Below, piece by piece: positions 40,874-51,628 of a DNA stretch of 64,000 nucleotides. Location of the stretch: positions 62,001 to 126,000 of the forward strand of contig JACPAV010000006.1 in the NCBI GenBank assembly GCA_016180645.1, written 5' to 3'. Below the pieces are notes generated by a model. That model did no database searches. It had not been told where the DNA came from and saw only the letters and a list, made by a program, of their open reading frames with translations. Source of the stretch: Nitrospirota bacterium. GTDB taxonomy: Bacteria > JACPQY01. Made by a program: the position numbers and the translations under genes. Position 1 is the first letter of the stretch, and each line of letters starts with the position of its first letter.

Positions 40874-43567
40874 ATGGTGCAGGGGCTGGGCGACGAACTA
40901 GAGTGGAAGACCCGGAAAAAGCGAATCGATCCGAGGCTGGATGCCTGCGACTGGAGATTACCCACGAAAGGGCAAGTGCCCCTTCGGACGCCGTACCGGA
41001 CCGAGGAATACCCTACAGATAACGGGCCGGCAGATTACGCCCTGCATCTTGACGGGAAAGTTCTTGGGATCGTCGAGGCGAAGAAGGTAACACTCGGTCC
41101 GCAGAACGTTCTGACTCAAGCAGAGCGGTATGCACGCGGGGCCACCAATAACGGGTTCGATTTCAATGGACTGCGTGTACCGTTCCTCTATTCGACCAAC
41201 GGTGAAGTGATCTGGTTCCATGATATCCGACATCCCCTAAACCGGTCCCGTCGCATCGCCGGATTCCACACGCCCGAAGCCCTAAAAGAGCAACTTGGCC
41301 GCGATTTCGACGCCTCCTGCCGATGGTTTACGGAGAATGCGAATGCCCACCCAAGATTGCGCCCCTACCAAGTAGAGGCAAACACCGCCACGGAGCAGGC
41401 CATCGCGAACCGGAAACGCGAAATGCTCGTGGCGATGGCCACGGGCTCCGGCAAGACGTTCACCATGGCGAATCAGATGTATCGATTCATGAAGTCCGGT
41501 GTATCCAAGCGCATTCTTTTCCTGGTGGATCGGCGGGCGCTCGCCGCCCAAGCCGTTCGCACGCTCGCCTCATTCGAACCGGAACCCGGACAGAAGTTCG
41601 ACAAGCTCTACGAGGTTTACAGCCAACGTTTCCACCGCGACGATCTCGACGAAGAGGAGAAATTCGATCCGGAAGTCCTTCCGTCAGACTACCTGCTGAA
41701 GCCCAGCCCCGATCACTCGTTCGTTTACGTCTGCACCATCCAGCGAATGGCGATAAATCTTTTTGGACGGAACGCGATTTTCGGCTCGGGCGACGAGGAA
41801 ATCGACGAGGATGCCGATCACCTCGATATCCCTATCCACGCCTTCGATGTCGTCATCGCCGACGAGTGCCACCGAGGCTACACATCTCAAGAACTTTCGG
41901 TCTGGCGGAACACGCTCGACCACTTCGATGCGATCAAAATCGGCCTCACCGCCACACCCGCCGCGCACACGACGAGCTATTTCAAGGAAGTCGTCTTCCG
42001 ATATGAGTACGAACGAGCCGTCCGGGAGGGCTATCTCGTGGATTACGATCCCGTTGCCGTTCACTCCGATGTGCGGCTGCGCGGCGTGTTCGTCAAAGAA
42101 GGGGAGAAAGTTGAGAGGGTGGATACGGAGACCGGAAACGAGCAACTCGATCTCATGGAGGACGAGAGGCATTTCGACGTGCCGGAGGTGGAACAGCACG
42201 TCACGTCTCCGGATTCCAATCGCAAGATCATTGAAGAACTCAAGAAACACGCCTTGGAGCATGAACAGAAATACGGGCGCTTTCCCAAGACGTTGATCTT
42301 CGCCGCAAACGACCTGCCGCACACCTCCCATGCCAATCAGCTCGTCGACATCTGCCGCCGGGCATTCGAACGGGGCGATGCCTTCGTTCAAAAGATCACG
42401 GGATCGAAGGACGTCGACCGACCTCTCCAGCGCATCCGGGAATTCCGCAACCGTCCCCTTCCGGGTATCGTCGTCTCGGTCGACATGATGTCCACCGGGG
42501 TCGACATCCCCGATCTGGAATTCATCGTTCTCCTTCGGCCCATCAAGTCCCGCATCCTTTTTGAGCAGATGCTGGGCCGGGGCACCCGGAAGGGCGAAAA
42601 ACATCCGGACAAATCCCATTTCACGGTATTCGACTGCTTCGGCGGTTCTCTTTTGGAATACTTCCGGAAGGCCACGGCAATTTCGGCCATCGCGCCGGAA
42701 CGGGTGGCCCGGACCATCGAAGAGGTCATCAATGATGTCTGGAGCAACCGGGACCGCGAGTACAACATCTGTTGCCTGGTGAAGCGGCTTCAACGTATCA
42801 ACAAGGAGATCGCGCCCGAGGGACGTGACAATCTGAAAGTTTTCTTGCCTGATGGCGATCTGGGCCGATACGCTCAAGGACTCCCCCACGCGCTCAATCA
42901 GGATTTCGTTGCCACGATGAAGCTCTTACGCGATCCCGACTTTCAGAAACTCCTGACCGATTTCCCCCGACCGAAACGCGTCTTTTACGTGGCCATCGAG
43001 AGCCAGGACACCGTCAGCTCGGAAGTCCTCATCCGGGATGCGGTTGGAAACGAATGGACGCCGGGGGACTACATCAAGGCCTTCCACGCTTTTGTTCGGG
43101 AGAATCCGGATCAGATCCAGGCGATTGGAATCCTCCTCAACCGACCCCAGGATTGGGGGATGGAGGCGCTCGTCGATCTTCAGAGCAAGCTGGCGGTCAC
43201 CAAACTGCGGTTCACTGTGAAGAACTTGCAGACGGCCTACGGCGCACGCTACAAGAAAGCCCTGGTGGACATCATCTCGATGATCAAGCATGCGGCACGC
43301 GAGGGGGAACCTCTCCTGACCGCCGAGGAGAGGGTTGAGAAGGTGTTCAACATCATCAGGTCGCGCTACGAATTCAGCTACGAACAACAGAATTGGCTCG
43401 CCAGAATCCGCGAGCATCTCGTGGCCAATTTGTCCATCGACCCGAAGGACTTCGACGAGATTCCTGTTCTCTCGCGCGAGGGAGGATGGCAGAAAGCCAG
43501 AGGTGTTTTCGAGAAGGGCCGGCTTCGCCAAATCCTCCAGGATTTCAACCAATCCATCGCCGCATGA
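40874..43567 (+). CDS. hsdR: Type I restriction enzyme R subunit (EcoEI/EcoAI-like)
   Basis: ADY..IVEAKK nuclease motif, MATGSGKT, DECHRG, QMLGRGTR. Confidence 0.95.
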   Translation: MVQGLGDELEWKTRKKRIDPRLDACDWRLPTKGQVPLRTPYRTEEYPTDNGPADYALHLDGKVLGIVEAKKVTLGPQNVLTQAERYARGATNNGFDFNGLRVPFLYSTNGEVIWFHDIRHPLNRSRRIAGFHTPEALKEQLGRDFDASCRWFTENANAHPRLRPYQVEANTATEQAIANRKREMLVAMATGSGKTFTMANQMYRFMKSGVSKRILFLVDRRALAAQAVRTLASFEPEPGQKFDKLYEVYSQRFHRDDLDEEEKFDPEVLPSDYLLKPSPDHSFVYVCTIQRMAINLFGRNAIFGSGDEEIDEDADHLDIPIHAFDVVIADECHRGYTSQELSVWRNTLDHFDAIKIGLTATPAAHTTSYFKEVVFRYEYERAVREGYLVDYDPVAVHSDVRLRGVFVKEGEKVERVDTETGNEQLDLMEDERHFDVPEVEQHVTSPDSNRKIIEELKKHALEHEQKYGRFPKTLIFAANDLPHTSHANQLVDICRRAFERGDAFVQKITGSKDVDRPLQRIREFRNRPLPGIVVSVDMMSTGVDIPDLEFIVLLRPIKSRILFEQMLGRGTRKGEKHPDKSHFTVFDCFGGSLLEYFRKATAISAIAPERVARTIEEVINDVWSNRDREYNICCLVKRLQRINKEIAPEGRDNLKVFLPDGDLGRYAQGLPHALNQDFVATMKLLRDPDFQKLLTDFPRPKRVFYVAIESQDTVSSEVLIRDAVGNEWTPGDYIKAFHAFVRENPDQIQAIGILLNRPQDWGMEALVDLQSKLAVTKLRFTVKNLQTAYGARYKKALVDIISMIKHAAREGEPLLTAEERVEKVFNIIRSRYEFSYEQQNWLARIREHLVANLSIDPKDFDEIPVLSREGGWQKARGVFEKGRLRQILQDFNQSIAA

Positions 43568-45003
43568 GTGACGTCGTCCAAAAACTTTGGGGCTTTTGCC
43601 ACACCCTCCGTCACGACGGCATCAGCTACGGCGACTACATCGAACAAATCACCTATCTGCTCTTTCTGAAAATGGCCGACGAGAAGGACGTGAGAATTCC
43701 CAAAGCGTGCGCGTGGCCCGAACTTCGTGCCCAATCGGGCAGCGACCTTCTCGACGGCTACGTGGATATTCTCCGAAAGCTTGGGAAGGAGAAAGGCATC
43801 CTCGGTGATATCTACTCCTCCGCGCAGTCGCGGTTCCGGAATCCCGTCAATCTCAAGAAATTGATCAGTTTGATCGATGAGACGGAATGGACGGCGCTCG
43901 GCGTGGACGTGAAGGCCGAAGCCTACGAGGGCCTCCTGGAAAAAGCGGCCAGCGAGGGCAAGAAAGGAGCGGGGCAATACTTCACCCCGCGCATTCTGAT
44001 CCAGTCGATTGTCCGTTGCATGAAACCCGATCCGAGGAAACACGCCGAGTTCACTATTTGCGATCCCGGCTGCGGAACGGGTGGATTTCTCGTGGCGGCG
44101 TATGAATGGCTTGTCGGTCGAACAAAGGGCGGCGCGCTGGATCGCGAGATCGCAAAGCGAATTAGGGCGAAAACCTATTTCGGCCAGGACCTCGATCCCC
44201 AGCCGCGCCGTCTTGCCCTGATGAATCTCTATCTCCACGGTTTGGAGGCGGTCATCGCGCTGGGCGACTCAATCTACGAGCCACCGGGAAGTGAGAAGTT
44301 CGATGTTGTCCTGACGAATCCACCTTTCGGGACGCGAGGCGCGAACCAAGCGCCGGACCGGGAAGATTTCACCGTGGCCACGTCGAATAAACAGCTCAAT
44401 TTCGTCCAGCACGTCCTCACCATTCTGAAGCCCGGCGGTCGGGCGGCGATTGTGTTGCCGGACAATTGCTTGTTCGAGGATCAGGCCGGAGAGGTGATGA
44501 AAATACTCACCGAGGATTGCGATCTCCATACGGTATTACGCTTGCCGCGTGGGACCTTCACCCCCTACAGCCAGGGCGTGAAGGCAAATGTTGTGTTTTT
44601 CACCAAGGGATACGCGACGGAGACGGTATGGATTTACGACGCCCGAACGAACGTGCCGGGGATCACCAAGAAAGATCGCCCGCTCGCGCCGAAGCACTTC
44701 GAGGGATTCGAGAAGTGCTATGGCTCCGATCCGAATGGCCGTGGAAAACGGAATCCGACGGACTCGAAGGAGGATCGTTGGCGGAGCTTCCATATTTCAG
44801 ATGTCAAAACCCACGATTTCAAGCTGGACAGCTTCAAATGGCTCAAGGAAGACTCCCTTGAGGACGCCGATGACCTCCCGGACCCAGAGGAACTCGTAGC
44901 CGACGCCGTTTCCGAACTCAATGCCGCCATGAAGGATTTGAACAAGATCATGGCGTATCTTGAGAATGGAGAAGCGGTACCAAACAAACCGAAGGGGACA
45001 TGA
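43564..45003 (+). CDS. hsdM: Type I DNA methyltransferase M subunit
   Basis: GQYFTPR, DPGCGTGGF, NPPF; ATGA overlap with hsdR. Confidence 0.96.
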   Translation: MSDVVQKLWGFCHTLRHDGISYGDYIEQITYLLFLKMADEKDVRIPKACAWPELRAQSGSDLLDGYVDILRKLGKEKGILGDIYSSAQSRFRNPVNLKKLISLIDETEWTALGVDVKAEAYEGLLEKAASEGKKGAGQYFTPRILIQSIVRCMKPDPRKHAEFTICDPGCGTGGFLVAAYEWLVGRTKGGALDREIAKRIRAKTYFGQDLDPQPRRLALMNLYLHGLEAVIALGDSIYEPPGSEKFDVVLTNPPFGTRGANQAPDREDFTVATSNKQLNFVQHVLTILKPGGRAAIVLPDNCLFEDQAGEVMKILTEDCDLHTVLRLPRGTFTPYSQGVKANVVFFTKGYATETVWIYDARTNVPGITKKDRPLAPKHFEGFEKCYGSDPNGRGKRNPTDSKEDRWRSFHISDVKTHDFKLDSFKWLKEDSLEDADDLPDPEELVADAVSELNAAMKDLNKIMAYLENGEAVPNKPKGT

Positions 45004-46376
45004 TAGTTACAGCACCCAACTCGGCGACCGGCACTCCTTCGGCTCCGAGTCACTCTGAACTCCCCGAACGGTGGACAATTGCCAAGCTTCTGGAGGTTTG
45101 CGAGCTGAATCCGAAGAAGCCGGCGAGGAACGCCCTGCCGAAAACCGCTCCAGTATCATTCGTGCCAATGGCGGCGGTAGACGAGAAGGAGGGCGCGATT
45201 CGTATAGTCCATGAGCGGGCATTCGCAAGCGTAAGGAATGGGTACACTGCCTTTCGTGAAGGCGACGTATTGATGGCAAAAATCACCCCGTGTATGGAGA
45301 ATGGCAAAGCGGCTGTTGCCCGAGGCTTGAAGAATGGGATCGGTTTCGGATCAAGCGAATTCCATGTTCTCCGTCCGTCCCCGCAGGTGTTGCCTGAGTT
45401 CATCTTTCACTTCATTCGGCAAGAATCGTTCAGAAGGCGCGCCGAAAATGAAATGACGGGTTCAGTGGGGCAAGAAAGGGTACCAACGGAATTCTTCGAC
45501 GATGTCGAGATTCCGTTTGCGCGCATATCAGACCAGAAGCGGCTTGTGGCGGTCGTTGAAACCCTGCTCGCCCAAGCCCATTCCGCCCGCGAACGTTTGG
45601 CGCGGGTGCGTGGAATAATGAAGCGCTTCCGTCAGTCCGTCCTCGCCGCCGCCTGCTCCGGCCGCCTCACCGCCGACTGGCGGGAGGAGGAGGCCGTGGC
45701 TTCAGAGATCGCTGACGAGCCTTGGCAATTCGAAAGCATCGCTTCTGTGTGCTCAGAGGTTGTCGACTGCCCACACTCAACTCCAAAGTGGGCCGACAGG
45801 GGCGAGATCTGTCTAAGAACCACAAATTTCACCATTGATGGGTTGGATCTTTCGACCGTACGGTACGTTTCGCGTGAGACCTACAGTCAGCGGGTGATCC
45901 GGCTAGAGCCGAGGCAGGACGACATTGTGTATAGCCGAGAAGGAGGAATCCTCGGAATAGCATGTATCATTCCAGCGGGCCTTCGCGCGTGCCTGGGTCA
46001 GCGGATGATGCTTATGCGTTGCAACCAGAAGACAATTCGGGCCAATTTTCTTTGCCATGTACTGAACTCCCCTCAGATGATGCATCGCGTAGTAGAACTC
46101 ACCGGCGGGAGCGCTTCTCCGCATCTCAATGTAGGGGTCATTAAGAGGTTTCCAGTTCCATCTCCTCGACTAGAAGAGCAGGATGAAATTCTCCGTCGCG
46201 TCGAGTCCCTTTTCAGGCTCGCGGACAAAATCGAGGAGCGCGTTTCCACCGCCGCCGCCCGCGCCGACAAACTCACCCAATCCATCCTCGCCAAAGCCTT
46301 CCGCGGCGAACTTTTCCTCACGCATGCTGATTCAACCCATTGCGAACCGACCTCCGGACATGCAATTAAACGATGA
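45000..46376 (+). CDS. hsdS: Type I specificity subunit
   Basis: ELPERW, KITPCMENGK, two TRDs, QSILAKAFRGEL. Confidence 0.95.
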   Translation: MIVTAPNSATGTPSAPSHSELPERWTIAKLLEVCELNPKKPARNALPKTAPVSFVPMAAVDEKEGAIRIVHERAFASVRNGYTAFREGDVLMAKITPCMENGKAAVARGLKNGIGFGSSEFHVLRPSPQVLPEFIFHFIRQESFRRRAENEMTGSVGQERVPTEFFDDVEIPFARISDQKRLVAVVETLLAQAHSARERLARVRGIMKRFRQSVLAAACSGRLTADWREEEAVASEIADEPWQFESIASVCSEVVDCPHSTPKWADRGEICLRTTNFTIDGLDLSTVRYVSRETYSQRVIRLEPRQDDIVYSREGGILGIACIIPAGLRACLGQRMMLMRCNQKTIRANFLCHVLNSPQMMHRVVELTGGSASPHLNVGVIKRFPVPSPRLEEQDEILRRVESLFRLADKIEERVSTAAARADKLTQSILAKAFRGELFLTHADSTHCEPTSGHAIKR

Positions 46377-46382
46377 GGCAGA

Positions 46383-47504
46383 TCACGCAGCCGAATTGGT
46401 GCTTTGGGAAAGGACCTGGCGACAAAGATCGGAAAATGTCTTATAGATTGTCACTCCGTTCGCGGATCGGCCGCGGAAGAACTTCTTCATCTTTTTCTGG
46501 ACGCAATCGGAAGGATCCACCACCACGATTCTACGGTACTTTGTATTCTTATCATTCATCGCCTTTGAGAGAATTGCCCGAAGATGGAAATCGGTTGAGA
46601 TGAGGGAACATCCGATGATTACAATCTGATCTGCGTCCTTTGCGGCTCCGTATGTAGCTATCCATAGCTTCCGCCAGAATTGGTTCCTAAAGAATTTCGA
46701 ATAGAGCGGCGGAACAAAGAGGCGTACCAATCGTTGCGCCTTCCTTTCATTTACCATTGGGAGTGCAGTCATTCGGATCTCAGAAACAGGGCGACGTTCA
46801 AGCACTTCTTCGAGATTCTTGGAGTTCCCTTTAGCGAACCAGTTAAGTGACCCGTGGGGCTTGAGAAGCCGCACACTTATGAGATGCACTTGCTGGCCAT
46901 ACTGGGGGACTGAGATTTCACTGCTTAGTCTTGCGGAAAAGCCGTACCCTTTTCGAGGATTCCAGCCCGCCGTAAATAACGCGTTGTCTACAAGCGTGTC
47001 ATAGTTGAGGGAGACGATCACATCATGCGGTTGTAGCGAACGTGCGAGAAGATCGTGATGTTGAATGCCATCCCGAGGACGACAAGTCTTTTGAACAAAA
47101 CGGAACAAGTGGATCAACAGATTGAGAAAATCTCTAATTTCGGGCCTGTACCCTACCGATGTTTTTCTGCCTCTCCCCTTATGAAAGATTTCCGGCAGAT
47201 CTTTGGAGATAAAGAGGATGCTAAAGACTTCCTCCATGGTCGGTTGGCGGAAGCCTTTCGGTCCGACCTCGTGGTTCACGAAATCAGCAAGCCGGTCGTA
47301 GGCGGCTCTATGCGTTTGGCCGTCATTCGTCCGAATGTATTTTCTGAGCACTTCAAAGAAATCGCCATTAAGGGGGGCAGTTACCCGAGGGGAATGCGTC
47401 CCTCTAAGTGCACCTTTCGTCGCGCCGGCGCCAAGGACGATCAACGTCTTTGAGTTGCGACCATTGATGATCACTGCAACTCCCTCACCCGTCCGAAACC
47501 ACAA
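46383..47504 (-). CDS. SIR2-like (SIR2_2) domain protein, putative NADase defence effector
   Basis: VLGAGAT, SLNYDTLVD, KPHGSLNW, VPP, IIGCSL..D; start uncertain. Confidence 0.85.
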   Translation of the reverse strand: MWFRTGEGVAVIINGRNSKTLIVLGAGATKGALRGTHSPRVTAPLNGDFFEVLRKYIRTNDGQTHRAAYDRLADFVNHEVGPKGFRQPTMEEVFSILFISKDLPEIFHKGRGRKTSVGYRPEIRDFLNLLIHLFRFVQKTCRPRDGIQHHDLLARSLQPHDVIVSLNYDTLVDNALFTAGWNPRKGYGFSARLSSEISVPQYGQQVHLISVRLLKPHGSLNWFAKGNSKNLEEVLERRPVSEIRMTALPMVNERKAQRLVRLFVPPLYSKFFRNQFWRKLWIATYGAAKDADQIVIIGCSLISTDFHLRAILSKAMNDKNTKYRRIVVVDPSDCVQKKMKKFFRGRSANGVTIYKTFSDLCRQVLSQSTNSAA

Positions 47505-47543
47505 GACGGCGTAAGCGCAACCGCATCATGAACAGCCAGCGGC

Positions 47544-47741
47544 TTACCTTCTGCGCCCAACCTTAGTGCGCCGCCCAGCGTATTTCCTAGGATTGAGAAT
47601 CTGCGAGAGACGTCCTTGCGAAATCCCCATAGCGCTGGAAATCTCCGGATTGGGAATCTCGGCCTTCCTCAGAAGTAAGACCAGAAGCCGGGACATCGTC
47701 CGAAGTTCCTTCAGGATGAGTTGAGCTATTTCGTCATTCAT
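47544..47741 (-). CDS. Small HTH protein (3 of 3)
   Basis: 65 aa; EISSAMGISQGRLSQIL; basic tail. Confidence 0.7.
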   Translation of the reverse strand: MNDEIAQLILKELRTMSRLLVLLLRKAEIPNPEISSAMGISQGRLSQILNPRKYAGRRTKVGRRR

Positions 47742-47755
47742 TCTTCCCCCCGTTG

Positions 47756-47992
47756 TTAGGAATTCCTTCGGGGAAGCTTGGCGATCCCCCTCTTGCGTAG
47801 ATTCGCCAAGGCCACATTGACGGTATTAGAAGTCGTGTTGAGGGCTTTGGCGATCTCTGTGGGCCGCATGCCAGCAAGGCTTAGAAGCCGGATTTGTTCA
47901 GACTGAGTTTTCCCCTCCGTCATCCGTAGAACCATCAACGTAAGAATCCCATTCAGCTTTGATACGATCGATTGGGCTAATTGCTGTTCCAT
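47756..47992 (-). CDS. Small HTH protein (2 of 3)
   Basis: 78 aa; GMRPTEIAKALNTTSNTVNVALANLRK. Confidence 0.75.
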   Translation of the reverse strand: MEQQLAQSIVSKLNGILTLMVLRMTEGKTQSEQIRLLSLAGMRPTEIAKALNTTSNTVNVALANLRKRGIAKLPRRNS

Positions 47993-47995
47993 TAG

Positions 47996-48223
47996 CTAGA
48001 TCCTCCTCTTCGATTTCGCTTGTGCTATGGTTGCCGTAACGAAGTTAATTGGCTTCCCTACAATTCGAGCAATCTCTGAAGGGCTTGCTCCCATTGCAAG
48101 CAGTCTTCGGATCTTCTGCGCTGCGCTGGCGATTTCATCAAAATCGACCTGGTCAAGCAGAAGAGCCGTGATGAGGTCGAGCCGTCTTGCAATTCCCTCA
48201 AGAATGTCATCTTTTCGTTTCAT
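47996..48223 (-). CDS. Small HTH protein (1 of 3)
   Basis: 75 aa; GASPSEIARIVGKPINFV; AAGGAGG RBS. Confidence 0.75.
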   Translation of the reverse strand: MKRKDDILEGIARRLDLITALLLDQVDFDEIASAAQKIRRLLAMGASPSEIARIVGKPINFVTATIAQAKSKRRI

Positions 48224-48244
48224 AGCTACCTCCTTGTGTTACTA

Positions 48245-48273
48245 AGCATAATATCTAGCTAAGAGGCTGTCAA
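48245..48273 (-). promoter_or_regulatory. Sigma70 promoter of the HTH-trio/SIR2 unit
   Basis: TTGACA(48273-48268)-17 bp-TATGCT(48250-48245). Confidence 0.75.
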
Positions 48274-48889
48274 TAGGCAATACTCCAGTCATTAGTTAGG
48301 CTATGAATGTTCGGAGGCGTTACACTTTATTACGGTCAATCAAGGGTTACCGGCGAAGGTCATCCATCCGGTCCCGCAGGCAGGTGAGGAGCCGGATCAG
48401 GGCCTCCGGGCTCATGTCTCCCCCATCCCCGAACGGAAGTCTCCGATTGGCGCTCCGCCGCCGGCTCACGGGAACCCTGCGGCAGAAGACCTTCGGAGAG
48501 GGCCGATCCCGGCGCTTTGAGGCGGTTTCCGGTCGACGACACCCATTTCCGTTTCAGCGCTCAGGACGATAGGATCCTTTCTCCATTCCTCTTCATCCTT
48601 GAGCTTCTCAAGCCCCCACCGCCGTCCCCGGTCGATAGGCTTCCTCCCGTCGTCGCTCAGGCCGCTGAACAGCCGCCAAGCCGTCTCCTGAACCAAGTCC
48701 TGCGCACGGACCACGTAATCCCGCGCCCAGTACCAAGGAACATCGCGGTGCTTGAGGAGATCGATCCATTTCCCAAGGGAAGTAGGCTGCCGGCGCAGGG
48801 TTTGAAGGCTCTCCATCTCGGACCAAGGATCGAAGGATGGGGCCGATGGCTTCGACCGCCTCCCTCCGATCCGGCCTTTCGTTGCACGT

Positions 48890-49213
48890 CTACCCACGGC
48901 GGGTGAGCACCTCGAAATCATGCGCGGTGATCCGGTGCGTCGGCTGGACGAACCAGGCCCATGGACGCTCCGGATCGTGGTCGCGGAAAACATCGAGCCT
49001 CGCGCGGAGGCGCACATCGAGGGCGACCGGACTGTCGATGTAAAGGGCGACGTCCGCGAGCCTGACGAGCCAGGGGTACTTCTCAGGCACCTCCACGGGA
49101 GCCTTGAGTCCTTTTTCCACCGCCGACGCAAGCCGCGCATGGCCGACAGTGCCCTTGGAGGCGGCGTAGAAGCAGATAGAGTCCCCAGCCTTGGCCGACT
49201 TCCGGGCCGCACT
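48890..49213 (-). pseudogene. Orphan copy of the C-terminal (EVE-like) domain of 50486-51628
   Basis: GDSICFYAASKGTVGHARLAS..PEKYPW..WAWF..ITAHDFEVLTRRG* versus NDQICFYACGVGAVAHARIAS..PEKYPW..WGWF..ISPKDFEILTSRG*; TAG at 49216-49214 upstream. Confidence 0.8.
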
Positions 49214-49228
49214 CTAGTCCCACGAACC

Positions 49229-49504
49229 TCAAAGAGTTGTACCCACCGCCCAATACGTGACCGTGAGGCCGCACTTGAAGAAAGTCGCCTTCATCTCCGC
49301 CGCTGCGTCGCTCGGCCAGTAGCCGCCGACTTCTACCGTGAACTCGGCTTCAGCGCCACCTACCCCGTCCTTTGCCTCCGAGACGGCGAGAGGACCTTGG
49401 AACGCGTACCGCAATGTTGTGTGGGAGGATTCCGCCAGGCGGCGCTGAATGTCCGCAACTTTCTCCGGCGTTGGATACGGTTTGAACTGGACGAGGAGTT
49501 TCAT
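49229..49504 (-). CDS. Small hypothetical protein
   Basis: ATGA overlap with the metallophosphoesterase stop. Confidence 0.55.
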   Translation of the reverse strand: MKLLVQFKPYPTPEKVADIQRRLAESSHTTLRYAFQGPLAVSEAKDGVGGAEAEFTVEVGGYWPSDAAAEMKATFFKCGLTVTYWAVGTTL

Positions 49505-50223
49505 CGGCTTGGTATCGATAGCTCGATCACCATCCCGTCCGGCCCCGGATTCACGATCCGGGTGGAGCCGATGGAATCCTCCCGCCCGAAACACTCATGG
49601 AAGTGACCGCAGATGACGATGCGGGGCTTCAAGGATTCGACGATCCTACGCACCGCCTTGCTGCCGATGCGCTTGCCGTCTTTGGGCACCGTCCAAAGCG
49701 AGCCGGTCCAGATCGGCTCCAGACCACAACAGGCCGTGTCGGACGGCGGGAAGTGCGTGAGAAAAATCACCGGAAGGGCCGGGTCGACCTGCGCTTTCAG
49801 GGTGGGCAGGTAGCTCCCGTAGCACTCCTGGTCTTCTCCGAAGAGCGGGGATAGGTCGGTCGTGCCGTCTAGACCGGCAATCAGGACTCTCGTGCCCTCC
49901 GCCGCGCCGAACACGTCAACCTTGAGATCGACATACCGCAGGACCGGGAACGCCTTGGAGACCGCAGAGCAAATGGTTCCGTACTCGTGGTTCCCGGCGA
50001 TGAAGTAGATCGGGATTCCAGCCTCGCTGAGCATCTTGAAGGATGGATGGAGACCTTCCGATTCGATGGTGAAGTCCCCCGCGCACACGATGAACGACGC
50101 CCGGCTCTCTCGTGTGAGGCGGAGGACCTTCTGGATCGACTCGACTGAGGCGTGGTGGTCCGTGAACGCTACGAAGCGAACCGGCGGGGAGGACGTCCGC
50201 TCCTGTTGTTCCTTCACGGGCAT
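49501..50223 (-). CDS. Calcineurin-like metallophosphoesterase
   Basis: TDHH, AGDF, GNHE, THFPP, GHFHE, NPG. Confidence 0.9.
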   Translation of the reverse strand: MPVKEQQERTSSPPVRFVAFTDHHASVESIQKVLRLTRESRASFIVCAGDFTIESEGLHPSFKMLSEAGIPIYFIAGNHEYGTICSAVSKAFPVLRYVDLKVDVFGAAEGTRVLIAGLDGTTDLSPLFGEDQECYGSYLPTLKAQVDPALPVIFLTHFPPSDTACCGLEPIWTGSLWTVPKDGKRIGSKAVRRIVESLKPRIVICGHFHECFGREDSIGSTRIVNPGPDGMVIELSIPSR

Positions 50224-50247: not shown

Positions 50248-50493
50248 TCAATGCTTGGAGGAACCCGCATCGACCCGACGCTGGAGGGACATCGCCATCT
50301 CCAGCGCGTACTGGACACGATCCCGGAGTTGGACCCACTGGCGATGCACTCTCTCCATCCCGTTCACTCGGTCGCGAACAATGGTCAAGATCTGGATCAG
50401 ATCCTCCGCGTCGAACTCCTCATCCAAGGGAGGAGGGGCCGACCGTTTCGGCCGCCTCCCACTACCCCGCCCTTGGTTCGTTCTCTTACCCAC
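50248..50493 (-). CDS. Small helical/coiled-coil protein
   Basis: Overlaps the end of the nuclease gene; amphipathic helices. Confidence 0.5.
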   Translation of the reverse strand: MGKRTNQGRGSGRRPKRSAPPPLDEEFDAEDLIQILTIVRDRVNGMERVHRQWVQLRDRVQYALEMAMSLQRRVDAGSSKH

Positions 50494-51628
50494 GGCTGGT
50501 GAGGATCTCGAAGTCCTTGGGGGAGATCCGCCGTGTCATCTTGAGGAACCACCCCCAGGACCCTTCCGGGTTCCGACCCTCGAACGCATCGAGCTCGGCA
50601 CGCACCTTCGCGTTGAGCACCTTGGGTTGCTCGACGTACAGGTGGACATCACCCAGCCGGATGCCCCAAGGATACTTCTCCGGGATAGGCACCTCGGCGT
50701 GGAGCCCCTTTTCCGGCCTGGAGGCGATTCGGGCATGGGCAACCGCCCCCACGCCGCAGGCGTAGAAACAGATCTGATCGTTCTCCTTCATCTGCCTCCG
50801 GGCGGGGGACCGGTCCCCAAGGGCGAACACGCGCCCGACACCCACGAGGGAGCGGATGATCTCGGTGGCCTTCGATCCATTCGATCCGACCGGGGCCAGC
50901 CAGCAGGTAGGCTCATCGGCGGTGACCACCTTTTCAGTGGAGGGAGCCAATGCCGGCTTGGGGAGGGTGTCCGGCTCCCGGCGGGCCATCAGGCGGGCGA
51001 GGAGGTCCACCACGGGGTCGACGTCCGGCGTGGAAGGCCGGAGGATGGCCAGTACATCCTCATGGGTGGCCTCCTGCTCGTCCACCATCTCCGCGAGGGA
51101 GAGGAGGGATTCGACGGAGGCCACTCGGAGTTGATGGGTCCTCTTTTCTGCGATGATGGCGTTCTCAAGCTGTCGCACCTGGGGATCGGGCCGTCCGACG
51201 ACATACAGCCCCAGGGCGTGGTCCCAGCCGGGTATGACCCCTTGGGAGATGAGTTCATCCACGTACCCCACCAAGGCGGAGGTCTTGATGGCATAGGTTT
51301 CGGAGGTCTTCACCTCGATGACGAGGGAGAACCCTCCGGGAGATTTCCAGAGGCCGTCGAAGCCGACCTCTCCCCGGCCCCCGTTGTACCGGCCATAGGC
51401 GACATCGAACCCGAGGAGTTCCCCCAAACGGACCACCATATCCTGGAGCGCCCGGCTGGGCTGTTCGCCGGTCTCGCCGAGGCATTCCTCGATGTAGTCC
51501 CGGAGCTGGCCTACCTCCATGACGTTGCTCCGCAGATAGGACCGGAACCGCTCGCGCGGGGTGTTTTCGCCGGGGCTGTCGTCCAGCCTCCCGGCGAGGT
51601 CGAGTATCCGTTTCAAGCTGATCATCAT
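50486..51628 (-). CDS. PD-(D/E)XK restriction-endonuclease-like protein with C-terminal EVE/PUA-like domain
   Basis: FDGLW..IEVKTS; C-terminal MKENDQICFY..VAHARI..YPW; GGAGG RBS. Confidence 0.7.
   Translation of the reverse strand: MMISLKRILDLAGRLDDSPGENTPRERFRSYLRSNVMEVGQLRDYIEECLGETGEQPSRALQDMVVRLGELLGFDVAYGRYNGGRGEVGFDGLWKSPGGFSLVIEVKTSETYAIKTSALVGYVDELISQGVIPGWDHALGLYVVGRPDPQVRQLENAIIAEKRTHQLRVASVESLLSLAEMVDEQEATHEDVLAILRPSTPDVDPVVDLLARLMARREPDTLPKPALAPSTEKVVTADEPTCWLAPVGSNGSKATEIIRSLVGVGRVFALGDRSPARRQMKENDQICFYACGVGAVAHARIASRPEKGLHAEVPIPEKYPWGIRLGDVHLYVEQPKVLNAKVRAELDAFEGRNPEGSWGWFLKMTRRISPKDFEILTSRG

Follow-up and report, generated by a model that had tools for sequence, protein, structure and literature searches.

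What are three genes for very small helix-turn-helix (HTH) proteins doing directly ahead of a gene for a stand-alone SIR2-like enzyme? The question is posed by a stretch of 64,000 nucleotides (nt) from a Nitrospirota bacterium (assembly GCA_016180645.1, contig JACPAV010000006.1, positions 62,001 to 126,000; hereafter ‘the window’), in which, reading along the minus strand, a promoter-like site and a ribosome-binding site lead into HTH-A (75 amino acids, aa; 47996–48223), HTH-B (78 aa; 47756–47992) and HTH-C (65 aa; 47544–47741), and from there into a gene for a 363-aa sirtuin-like protein of the SIR2_2 type (46383–47474), predicted from its homologues and from a structural model to be an effector that hydrolyses nicotinamide adenine dinucleotide (NAD; an ‘NADase’). 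A preliminary description, made before any comparison with other genomes, took these four genes for a candidate new defence system. Comparative sequence evidence now supports and widens the idea of a new HTH-plus-SIR2 unit: the cassette is most likely a member of a conserved and so far undescribed family of conflict modules, be they anti-phage, abortive-infection or toxin–antitoxin-like in character.

The small HTH genes and the SIR2 gene form a conserved unit. We assembled an orthologous set—the window plus 28 loci from genome and metagenome collections (L002–L016 and L082–L094), with SIR2 proteins 36–60% identical to that of the window—and a comparison set of 132 loci whose SIR2_2 genes are more remote, and then scanned 7822 open reading frames (ORFs) across all 162 sequences with profile hidden Markov models (HMMs) for two families of small HTH protein. 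The first, S, includes A, B and C and consists of short LuxR/sigma-region-4-like HTH proteins (57–134 aa as called) encoded in one to five tandem copies; the second, Lg, consists of winged HTH (wHTH) proteins of about 100–130 aa that carry the motif KAFNLCDG...GNLSR..W..NG. A small HTH gene adjoins SIR2 in each of the 29 orthologous loci (S in 27, Lg in 22), whereas the two HMMs matched zero ORFs in the 132 distant SIR2_2 loci; the co-occurrence anticipated in the preliminary description is therefore borne out. The two loci without an S match are both damaged: L085 has a frameshifted S remnant beside an integrase, and the SIR2 gene of L093 is cut by an IS21 element. A merger of S and Lg into one family was considered and rejected, profile–profile alignment with hhalign giving a probability of 33% and an E-value of 4.6e-4, which is too weak.

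Across these loci we see three arrangements of the same parts. In the commonest (architecture I), the order is Lg–SIR2–S, with 18 complete examples and a further three that are partial (L085, L093, L094); in architecture II, found at L004 and L084, one or two Lg genes are followed by S and then by SIR2; and in architecture III an S array precedes SIR2 without any Lg gene, as in the window (three S genes), in L002, L007, L082 and L083 (two each) and in L003 (five). The trio once thought to define the system is consequently one variant of it, copy number ranging from one to five, with most relatives having one long wHTH gene upstream of SIR2 and one short HTH gene downstream. Neighbouring cassette genes overlap by 4 nt at many junctions, and S is often the final gene of the operon. 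In a phylogenetic tree, the HTH-linked SIR2 proteins fall into a single clade of 26 rows (support 100/99, stem length 1.36, with 19 outgroup rows), which divides into a group of six that includes the window (99/96) and a group of twenty with architecture I (100/98). The linkage also holds when looked at from the HTH side: nine S matches reach E ≤ 1e-8 in five genomes that contain the SIR2 system, and every one of them falls at the SIR2 locus.

Turning to the HTH proteins themselves, pairwise BLASTP at default settings finds no similarity between A, B and C, and for this reason profiles were needed to establish their kinship. An S HMM that leaves the window out, made from 29 family members at other loci and run over all 542 window ORFs of at least 40 aa, matches only B (1.9e-19), A (3.6e-12) and C (1e-3); on this profile evidence the three are true members of one family, C being the weakest, and the common plan that had been noticed by eye—N-terminal helix, HTH, basic tail—is a genuinely shared one. 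In a profile search of the whole genome C attains an E-value of 9.3e-8, with a profile that includes C itself, and in the window's own genome the S profile matches only A, B and C, apart from one weak match at 6.9e-4. Pfam HTH matches of all three lie under the cut-offs, that of B to Sigma70_r4_2 being at 2.6e-4. Within the family, A follows the usual plan, C is a divergent member without the linker and with no clear counterpart in other arrays, and B is the counterpart of the S protein present in nearly all related loci, with up to 36% identity (L010; 34–35% for L015 and L008) to S genes that lie downstream of SIR2 elsewhere. In the L003 array, A finds its best match in the second gene (E 4e-9) and B in the third, the order being the same in both loci.

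The structural model of B (predicted local distance difference test, pLDDT, 87.6) comprises a 23-residue N-terminal helix (residues 2–24), a three-helix HTH and a disordered basic tail. When this model was compared with the PDB and BFVD by Foldseek, nothing reached E ≤ 1e-3; short of that threshold, its HTH superposes best on NarL (root-mean-square deviation 1.9 over 45 columns), LiaR, VpsT and TraR, and MarR-type proteins such as MepR superpose over the helix and HTH together. By analogy with MarR proteins, the N-terminal helix of the S proteins may serve pairing. At the level of sequence, the S profile matches an archaeal regulator (1e-5), CooA, region 4 of SigR (2.8e-3) and NarL in the PDB; one S member, P0133, passes the Sigma70_r4_2 cut-off with 32.3 bits; and the neighbours of S in the Atlas are clusters of 74–83-aa proteins automatically named ‘CsgD family regulator’.

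The partner of these proteins is a stand-alone enzyme of the SIR2_2 type, its NAD pocket intact, which is predicted to destroy NAD+. SIR2_2 (PF13289) is its sole Pfam match, at a score just short of the cut-off, and most of its homologues have a precomputed match to the same entry. The wider family numbers 169 proteins at E ≤ 1e-3, of which the best 120 measure 242–367 aa, most of them having no name or being labelled ‘SIR2 family protein’. Three motifs are invariant in 29 aligned SIR2 sequences: GAGxxxG (G15, G17, G21), LNYDT (N157, D159) and KPHGS (H207); in other SIR2 enzymes the conserved Asn/Asp and His residues form the active site. The structural model (pLDDT 87.3) matches 152 PDB chains at E ≤ 1e-3 in Foldseek, the nearest being SIR2-HerA, followed by DSR2, Avs5, SPARSA and ThsA; the closest solved fold is chain 8sub_B of SIR2-HerA (E 5.7e-9, template-modelling score about 0.5, roughly 14% identity), and the SIR2 protein of the same system is also the only sequence match in the PDB (8w9l_A, E 0.0048). 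PADLOC matches are generic (best 7.2e-9), with weak ones to the Aga_SIR2 domain (2.9e-7) and to PDC-S21 (2.2e-4). No orthologue was found in viral contigs (best 27% identity, 16 loci), nor was the window SIR2 found in 40 other genomes sampled around the window's own, of which only one belongs to the same taxonomic family as the window's genome.

How is the cassette laid out, and where might it be controlled? The putative sigma-70-type promoter TTGACA-17-TATGCT (48245–48273, minus strand) has 10 of 12 consensus matches and is the top of three promoter-like sites in 46000–48700, where 1.5 are expected. It is followed by the ribosome-binding site AAGGAGG (48229–48235, minus strand), 5 nt ahead of the ATG of HTH-A at 48223, and then by the three genes of 65–78 aa, separated by 3 nt (A–B) and 14 nt (B–C), all of which agrees with what the preliminary description had reported. 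That SIR2 comes directly after the trio also holds, although the gap of about 40 nt given for it does not: SIR2 starts at the GTG at 47474, as in its homologues and in the database entry and with GAGGGAG upstream, and the gap from HTH-C is consequently 69 nt, the smaller figure applying only to an alternative TTG start at 47504, which is without a ribosome site and less likely. This spacer has no notable RNA structure (fold z -0.12). The block is indeed AT-rich, as had been remarked (GC 0.49–0.53, against 0.56–0.66 in both flanks), and it does converge on hsdS (45000–46376, plus strand; Methylase_S), with 6 nt separating the two stop codons; hsdS is the last gene of a type I restriction-modification (R-M) operon that also contains hsdR (40874–43567) and hsdM (to 45003).

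The palindrome TAGCTA occurs four times in the window, every copy being inside the cassette. Three of these, read without regard to strand, had been picked out previously and are confirmed here: one within the promoter spacer (48256–48261), a candidate operator; a second that abuts and overlaps the start codon of HTH-A (48223–48228); and a third at the junction of the A stop and B start (47993–47998). The fourth, which had been missed, lies in the SIR2 coding region (46655–46660). The promoter copy is part of a 10-nt inverted repeat, TTAGCTAGAT / ATCTAGCTAA, shared with 47992–48001 (the A/B copy) and 100% complementary to it. The shuffle mean for the cassette is 0.19 copies, and four copies were reached in 0 of 5000 shuffles; a role for TAGCTA as an operator is plausible but unproven. 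Palindrome counts in seven related loci are unremarkable apart from L083, where the HTH part (region 1356–2093) contains TAGCTA twice (1/1000 shuffles), a hexamer that is not found in L002 or L082.

Is SIR2 the only partner of the S proteins? Out of 1.84 billion cluster representatives, 5619 match the S profile at E ≤ 1e-3 and 642 still do so at E ≤ 1e-10, and about 90 of the 150 S-profile matches listed are single-domain proteins of 65–114 aa. In a search blind to SIR2, covering 1574 genomes in four phylum samples and taking E ≤ 1e-8 as a match, 5/401, 1/401, 6/401 and 1/371 genomes contained an S gene, or 13 of 1574 in total with the four seed genomes included. One of the nine new genomes is of the known SIR2 type (L193, on the same contig as L006); the other eight are without a SIR2 gene of the window family, and in them S arrays of one to four genes are found, accompanied in seven of the eight by Lg-like wHTH genes.

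Tabulating what lies downstream of these homologues of the trio reveals other effector-type genes. After the S array, L185 has a 177-aa ORF overlapping a TIR_2 ORF (5e-12; PADLOC PDC-S66, 2.4e-42); L182 has a wHTH-Schlafen AlbA_2 protein (L182:4110–4904; 1.4e-17) with a 233-aa protein; L194 has a Swt1-type HEPN protein (HEPN_Swt1 7e-8; PDC-M34B 3.8e-38); L195, L196 and L197 have a MarR-like wHTH with a protein of about 262 aa (299 aa in L197; PDC-M36A 1.3e-11); and L183 and L184 have proteins without a family match. Because S arrays precede TIR, Schlafen, HEPN and PDC-M36A-like genes in this manner, we see the HTH genes as a portable module with interchangeable effector-type partners. The protein of about 262 aa (L195:621–1406, minus; L196:6433–7218, plus; L197:4268–5167, minus) always lies behind S, Lg-like and MarR-like wHTH genes, and its copies in L195 and L196 share 41% identity; visual inspection shows an ID...ECK motif similar to that of PD-(D/E)xK nucleases, an unconfirmed resemblance, and no PDB sequence match was found for it.

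Some proteins with more than one HTH also match the S profile. Two S modules are fused in P0150 (136 aa) and P0155 (156 aa), a single-chain form of neighbouring S genes. P0121, P0122, P0124, P0127, P0140 and P0145 are 268–2552 aa long, with 4–31 tandem HTH repeats of the type ‘...IIELR.QGLSNAEIAKELG.T..T...’; these long poly-HTH proteins, which are of the kind that makes up the rest of the 150 matches listed, together with repeat proteins in the PDB (BurrH and designed repeats), were considered as relatives and set aside as generic HTH similarity summed over repeats.

What, then, do the small HTH proteins do? The reading that we prefer, at a probability of about 0.55, is that they repress their own operon and probably also restrain a SIR2 enzyme that would otherwise destroy NAD, and that infection lifts this control, the ensuing loss of NAD+ aborting the infection. 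In such a scheme the N-terminal helices of the S proteins would bring them together in pairs, and the proteins would bind the palindrome TAGCTA within the promoter and a little past it, keeping the operon low; they would probably keep the enzyme inactive as well, in the way that HTH antitoxins do; infection would remove or titrate them, releasing SIR2; and, as NAD+ drops, the infected cell would no longer support the phage. Several points weigh against this. HTH-C is a weak family member (E 1e-3 with the HMM that leaves the window out), and the window SIR2, at 24.3 bits, is 0.2 bits short of the Pfam SIR2_2 cut-off of 24.5. In shuffles of the 827-nt HTH part, 110 of 1000 reach a count of three with some palindrome, there being 64 palindromic hexamers to choose among, and after this correction the enrichment of TAGCTA is suggestive rather than proven; no common operator is visible across the related loci. 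Fusions of HTH and SIR2 are found neither among the best 120 of the 169 homologues (up to 367 aa) nor, though the evidence there is weak, among proteins of 637–2000 aa. Six related loci (L006, L008, L010, L013, L015 and L016) have housekeeping neighbours only, and for 46383–48300 of the window a run lookup lists four DNA runs from one groundwater study, which may be the source, and no RNA run. Finally, the HTH proteins could be plain transcription factors, without a role in sensing or in restraining the enzyme.

That last possibility deserves to be set out in full, since the genes could simply be ordinary regulators of a single-gene SIR2 defence, making S a new defence-associated regulator family analogous to BrxR/CapW. 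The fold is that of a standard DNA-binding HTH, the palindrome sits within the promoter, and the same HTH families adjoin several unrelated effectors, as is the case for widespread defence regulators; yet one to five diverged paralogues and a second wHTH family go far beyond a repressor's needs, the A-then-B order is kept between the window and L003, and S often comes after the effector with a 4-nt overlap, so that we judge this unlikely. A role in sensing is another possibility, somewhat unlikely in our estimation: the HTH proteins would recognise a feature of invading DNA and switch SIR2 on directly, much like guide-bound Argonaute in SPARSA. The translational coupling of S genes to SIR2, often as last genes of the operon and with 4-nt overlaps, would be odd for a pure autoregulator, the basic tails of the S proteins are conserved, and the fusion of a wHTH to the effector in one locus without SIR2 (the wHTH-Schlafen protein at L182:4110–4904) fits a sensor domain; against this, the only DNA clue, TAGCTA, lies in the cassette's own promoter and points to autoregulation.

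Two further proposals seem to us a good deal less probable. The S proteins might be decoys that mimic sigma region 4 or LuxR-type regulators, such that a phage protein attacking those factors binds the decoys and frees the effector. This would agree with the Sigma70_r4_2 matches (P0133 at 32.3 bits, above cut-off; HTH-B at 2.6e-4), with SigR region 4 in the PDB (2.8e-3) and with the fast turnover of S copy number and sequence even between close SIR2 relatives, but the likeness to NarL/LuxR/CsgD-type HTHs is equally good, and we think it very unlikely. The least probable account of all has no defence role in it, SIR2 modifying a protein or small molecule within an HTH regulatory circuit, or the small ORFs existing by chance. 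The six loci among housekeeping genes are in its favour; on the other side, the nearest folds all belong to anti-phage SIR2 proteins, the partner effectors elsewhere (TIR, HEPN and Schlafen) are well-known suicide domains with matches among the PADLOC candidates, and the distribution is sporadic (13/1574 genomes, four of them seeds), whilst the idea of chance ORFs is ruled out by finding S conserved in 27 of 29 loci and by the 642 representatives at E ≤ 1e-10. A more ambitious reading can be put forward tentatively, and at clearly less than even odds: S arrays, usually together with a MarR-like wHTH, might be the sensing and control core of a new modular immune class whose suicide effectors are of no fewer than five unrelated kinds (SIR2, TIR, Schlafen, HEPN and PDC-M36A-like), with the paralogues either forming a hetero-oligomer that reads foreign DNA or serving as decoys of host transcription factors that phages attack.

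Does any known system already account for the cassette? The suggestion that the unit falls outside existing models stands for the models consulted: PADLOC-DB 2.0.0 (2023), Pfam and NCBIfam give generic SIR2 and HTH matches only, and none of the three has a model that covers the S or Lg proteins. PADLOC returns no match for HTH-A, HTH-C or the S protein of L014, weak matches to CasR/CARF HTHs for HTH-B, and weak matches for Lg. Full-text literature searches found no description of an HTH-array/SIR2 system, supplements that describe the PADLOC PDC candidates being outside the scope of that search. The excerpt of one paper that we drew upon lists the known sirtuin conflict systems and, within that excerpt, mentions no HTH partner (PMC9503650); likewise, the part of another that treats SIR2_2 proteins, including human FAM118, as one class does not mention one there (PMC12700824).

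Of the characterised systems, SIR2-HerA (Nezha) is the nearest in fold, and its SIR2 subunit too is stand-alone (about 380–415 aa) and needs a partner protein; unlike Nezha, the cassette has no HerA ATPase gene, SIR2 adjoining HTH-C and hsdS and its partners being small HTH proteins, and there is no HerA among 86 flanking ORFs of the related loci. DSR1/DSR2, ThsA, SIR2-APAZ and Avs5 share with it the SIR2_2 (‘SIRim’) class of NAD-consuming defence effectors, as set out in the part of PMC12700824 concerned. In those systems the SIR2 domain is joined in one chain to a large sensor or works alongside one, the sensor being a C-terminal solenoid, SLOG, APAZ plus prokaryotic Argonaute (pAgo), or STAND, whereas the window protein is a bare SIR2 domain. 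DSR1 and DSR2 are long proteins, of about 1000 aa, that have SIR2 at the N-terminus and a large sensor at the C-terminus, in contrast to the 363 aa of the window SIR2, for which no longer relatives were found; for Thoeris, no SLOG domain was found, ThsA and ThsB have no PADLOC match among the four cassette proteins, and the cassette has no TIR gene; and for SPARSA (SIR2-APAZ plus short pAgo), the cassette gives weak Aga_SIR2 matches (2.9e-7) and no pAgo match for its four proteins.

By analogy, the cassette would work most like an HTH-antitoxin pair such as RES-Xre, a type II toxin–antitoxin system in which a small HTH gene likewise adjoins, and often overlaps, the gene for an NAD-destroying enzyme (the RES toxin and its HTH antitoxin appear in the excerpt of PMC9503650). 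RES-Xre differs in that its toxin is ART-like rather than a sirtuin, and in having a single antitoxin with an Xre-type HTH, against one to five paralogues plus a wHTH in the cassette family. The PADLOC candidates PDC-S66, PDC-M34 and PDC-M36 match effectors beside S arrays elsewhere, and PDC-S21 weakly matches the window SIR2; no PADLOC model matches the S proteins, however, and the PDC systems are themselves candidates. The WYL regulators BrxR/CapW bind DNA and are encoded upstream of many defence systems that are unrelated to one another; in contrast to these, S proteins are without a WYL or ligand domain, are only 57–134 aa long, occur in tandem arrays and are often encoded downstream of the effector.

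Few anti-phage effectors are commoner than SIR2 NADases and, to our knowledge, all those studied so far are controlled by a large sensing component, be it HerA, SLOG, pAgo, STAND or a solenoid domain. In the cassette a SIR2 domain on its own is linked to tiny HTH proteins alone, and these HTH genes also accompany effectors of the TIR, HEPN and Schlafen types, whose PADLOC matches are to candidates only. Should the HTH array be a sensor or antitoxin, it would constitute a very compact, portable control module, and would explain the silencing of several orphan candidate effectors; should the HTH proteins be only repressors, they would represent a new defence-associated regulator family and a marker for effectors in little-studied phyla such as Acidobacteriota, Planctomycetota, Omnitrophota and DPANN archaea.

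Looking outwards from the cassette, at least 14 of the 28 related loci adjoin restriction, other defence or mobile-element genes. Mrr-type endonucleases flank L002 and L003, type I R-M genes L004, L086 and L087, a type IIG enzyme L009, a MutH-like and methylase pair with a transposase L005, an HNH nuclease L082, NOV_C helicase or nuclease genes L014, L090 and L091, and integrases, a resolvase or insertion-sequence elements L011, L085 and L093. Together with the sporadic distribution and low GC, such neighbours fit a horizontally moving defence gene set. The proposal that the cassette guards the adjacent R-M system finds little backing, type I R-M genes adjoining only four of the 29 loci (the window, L004, L086 and L087), a frequency that fits ordinary clustering in defence islands. 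In two of these, L086 (6–2593) and L087 (58–2279), an Lg–SIR2–S cassette lies directly downstream of the C-terminal part of an EcoEI-type hsdR and of hsdS; the R-M system of the window is of the same kind but converges on the cassette.

Just upstream of the cassette, a 76-aa ORF (48890–49120, minus strand) is 53% identical (E 1e-28) to the C-terminal 75 residues of a 380-aa ORF located 1.4 kb further on (50486–51628, minus strand). Neither has a Pfam or NCBIfam match, and the pair may reflect the duplication or truncation of a domain from an unknown family. Between the two lies a gene for a calcineurin-like metallophosphoesterase (49501–50223, minus strand; Metallophos 1e-15).

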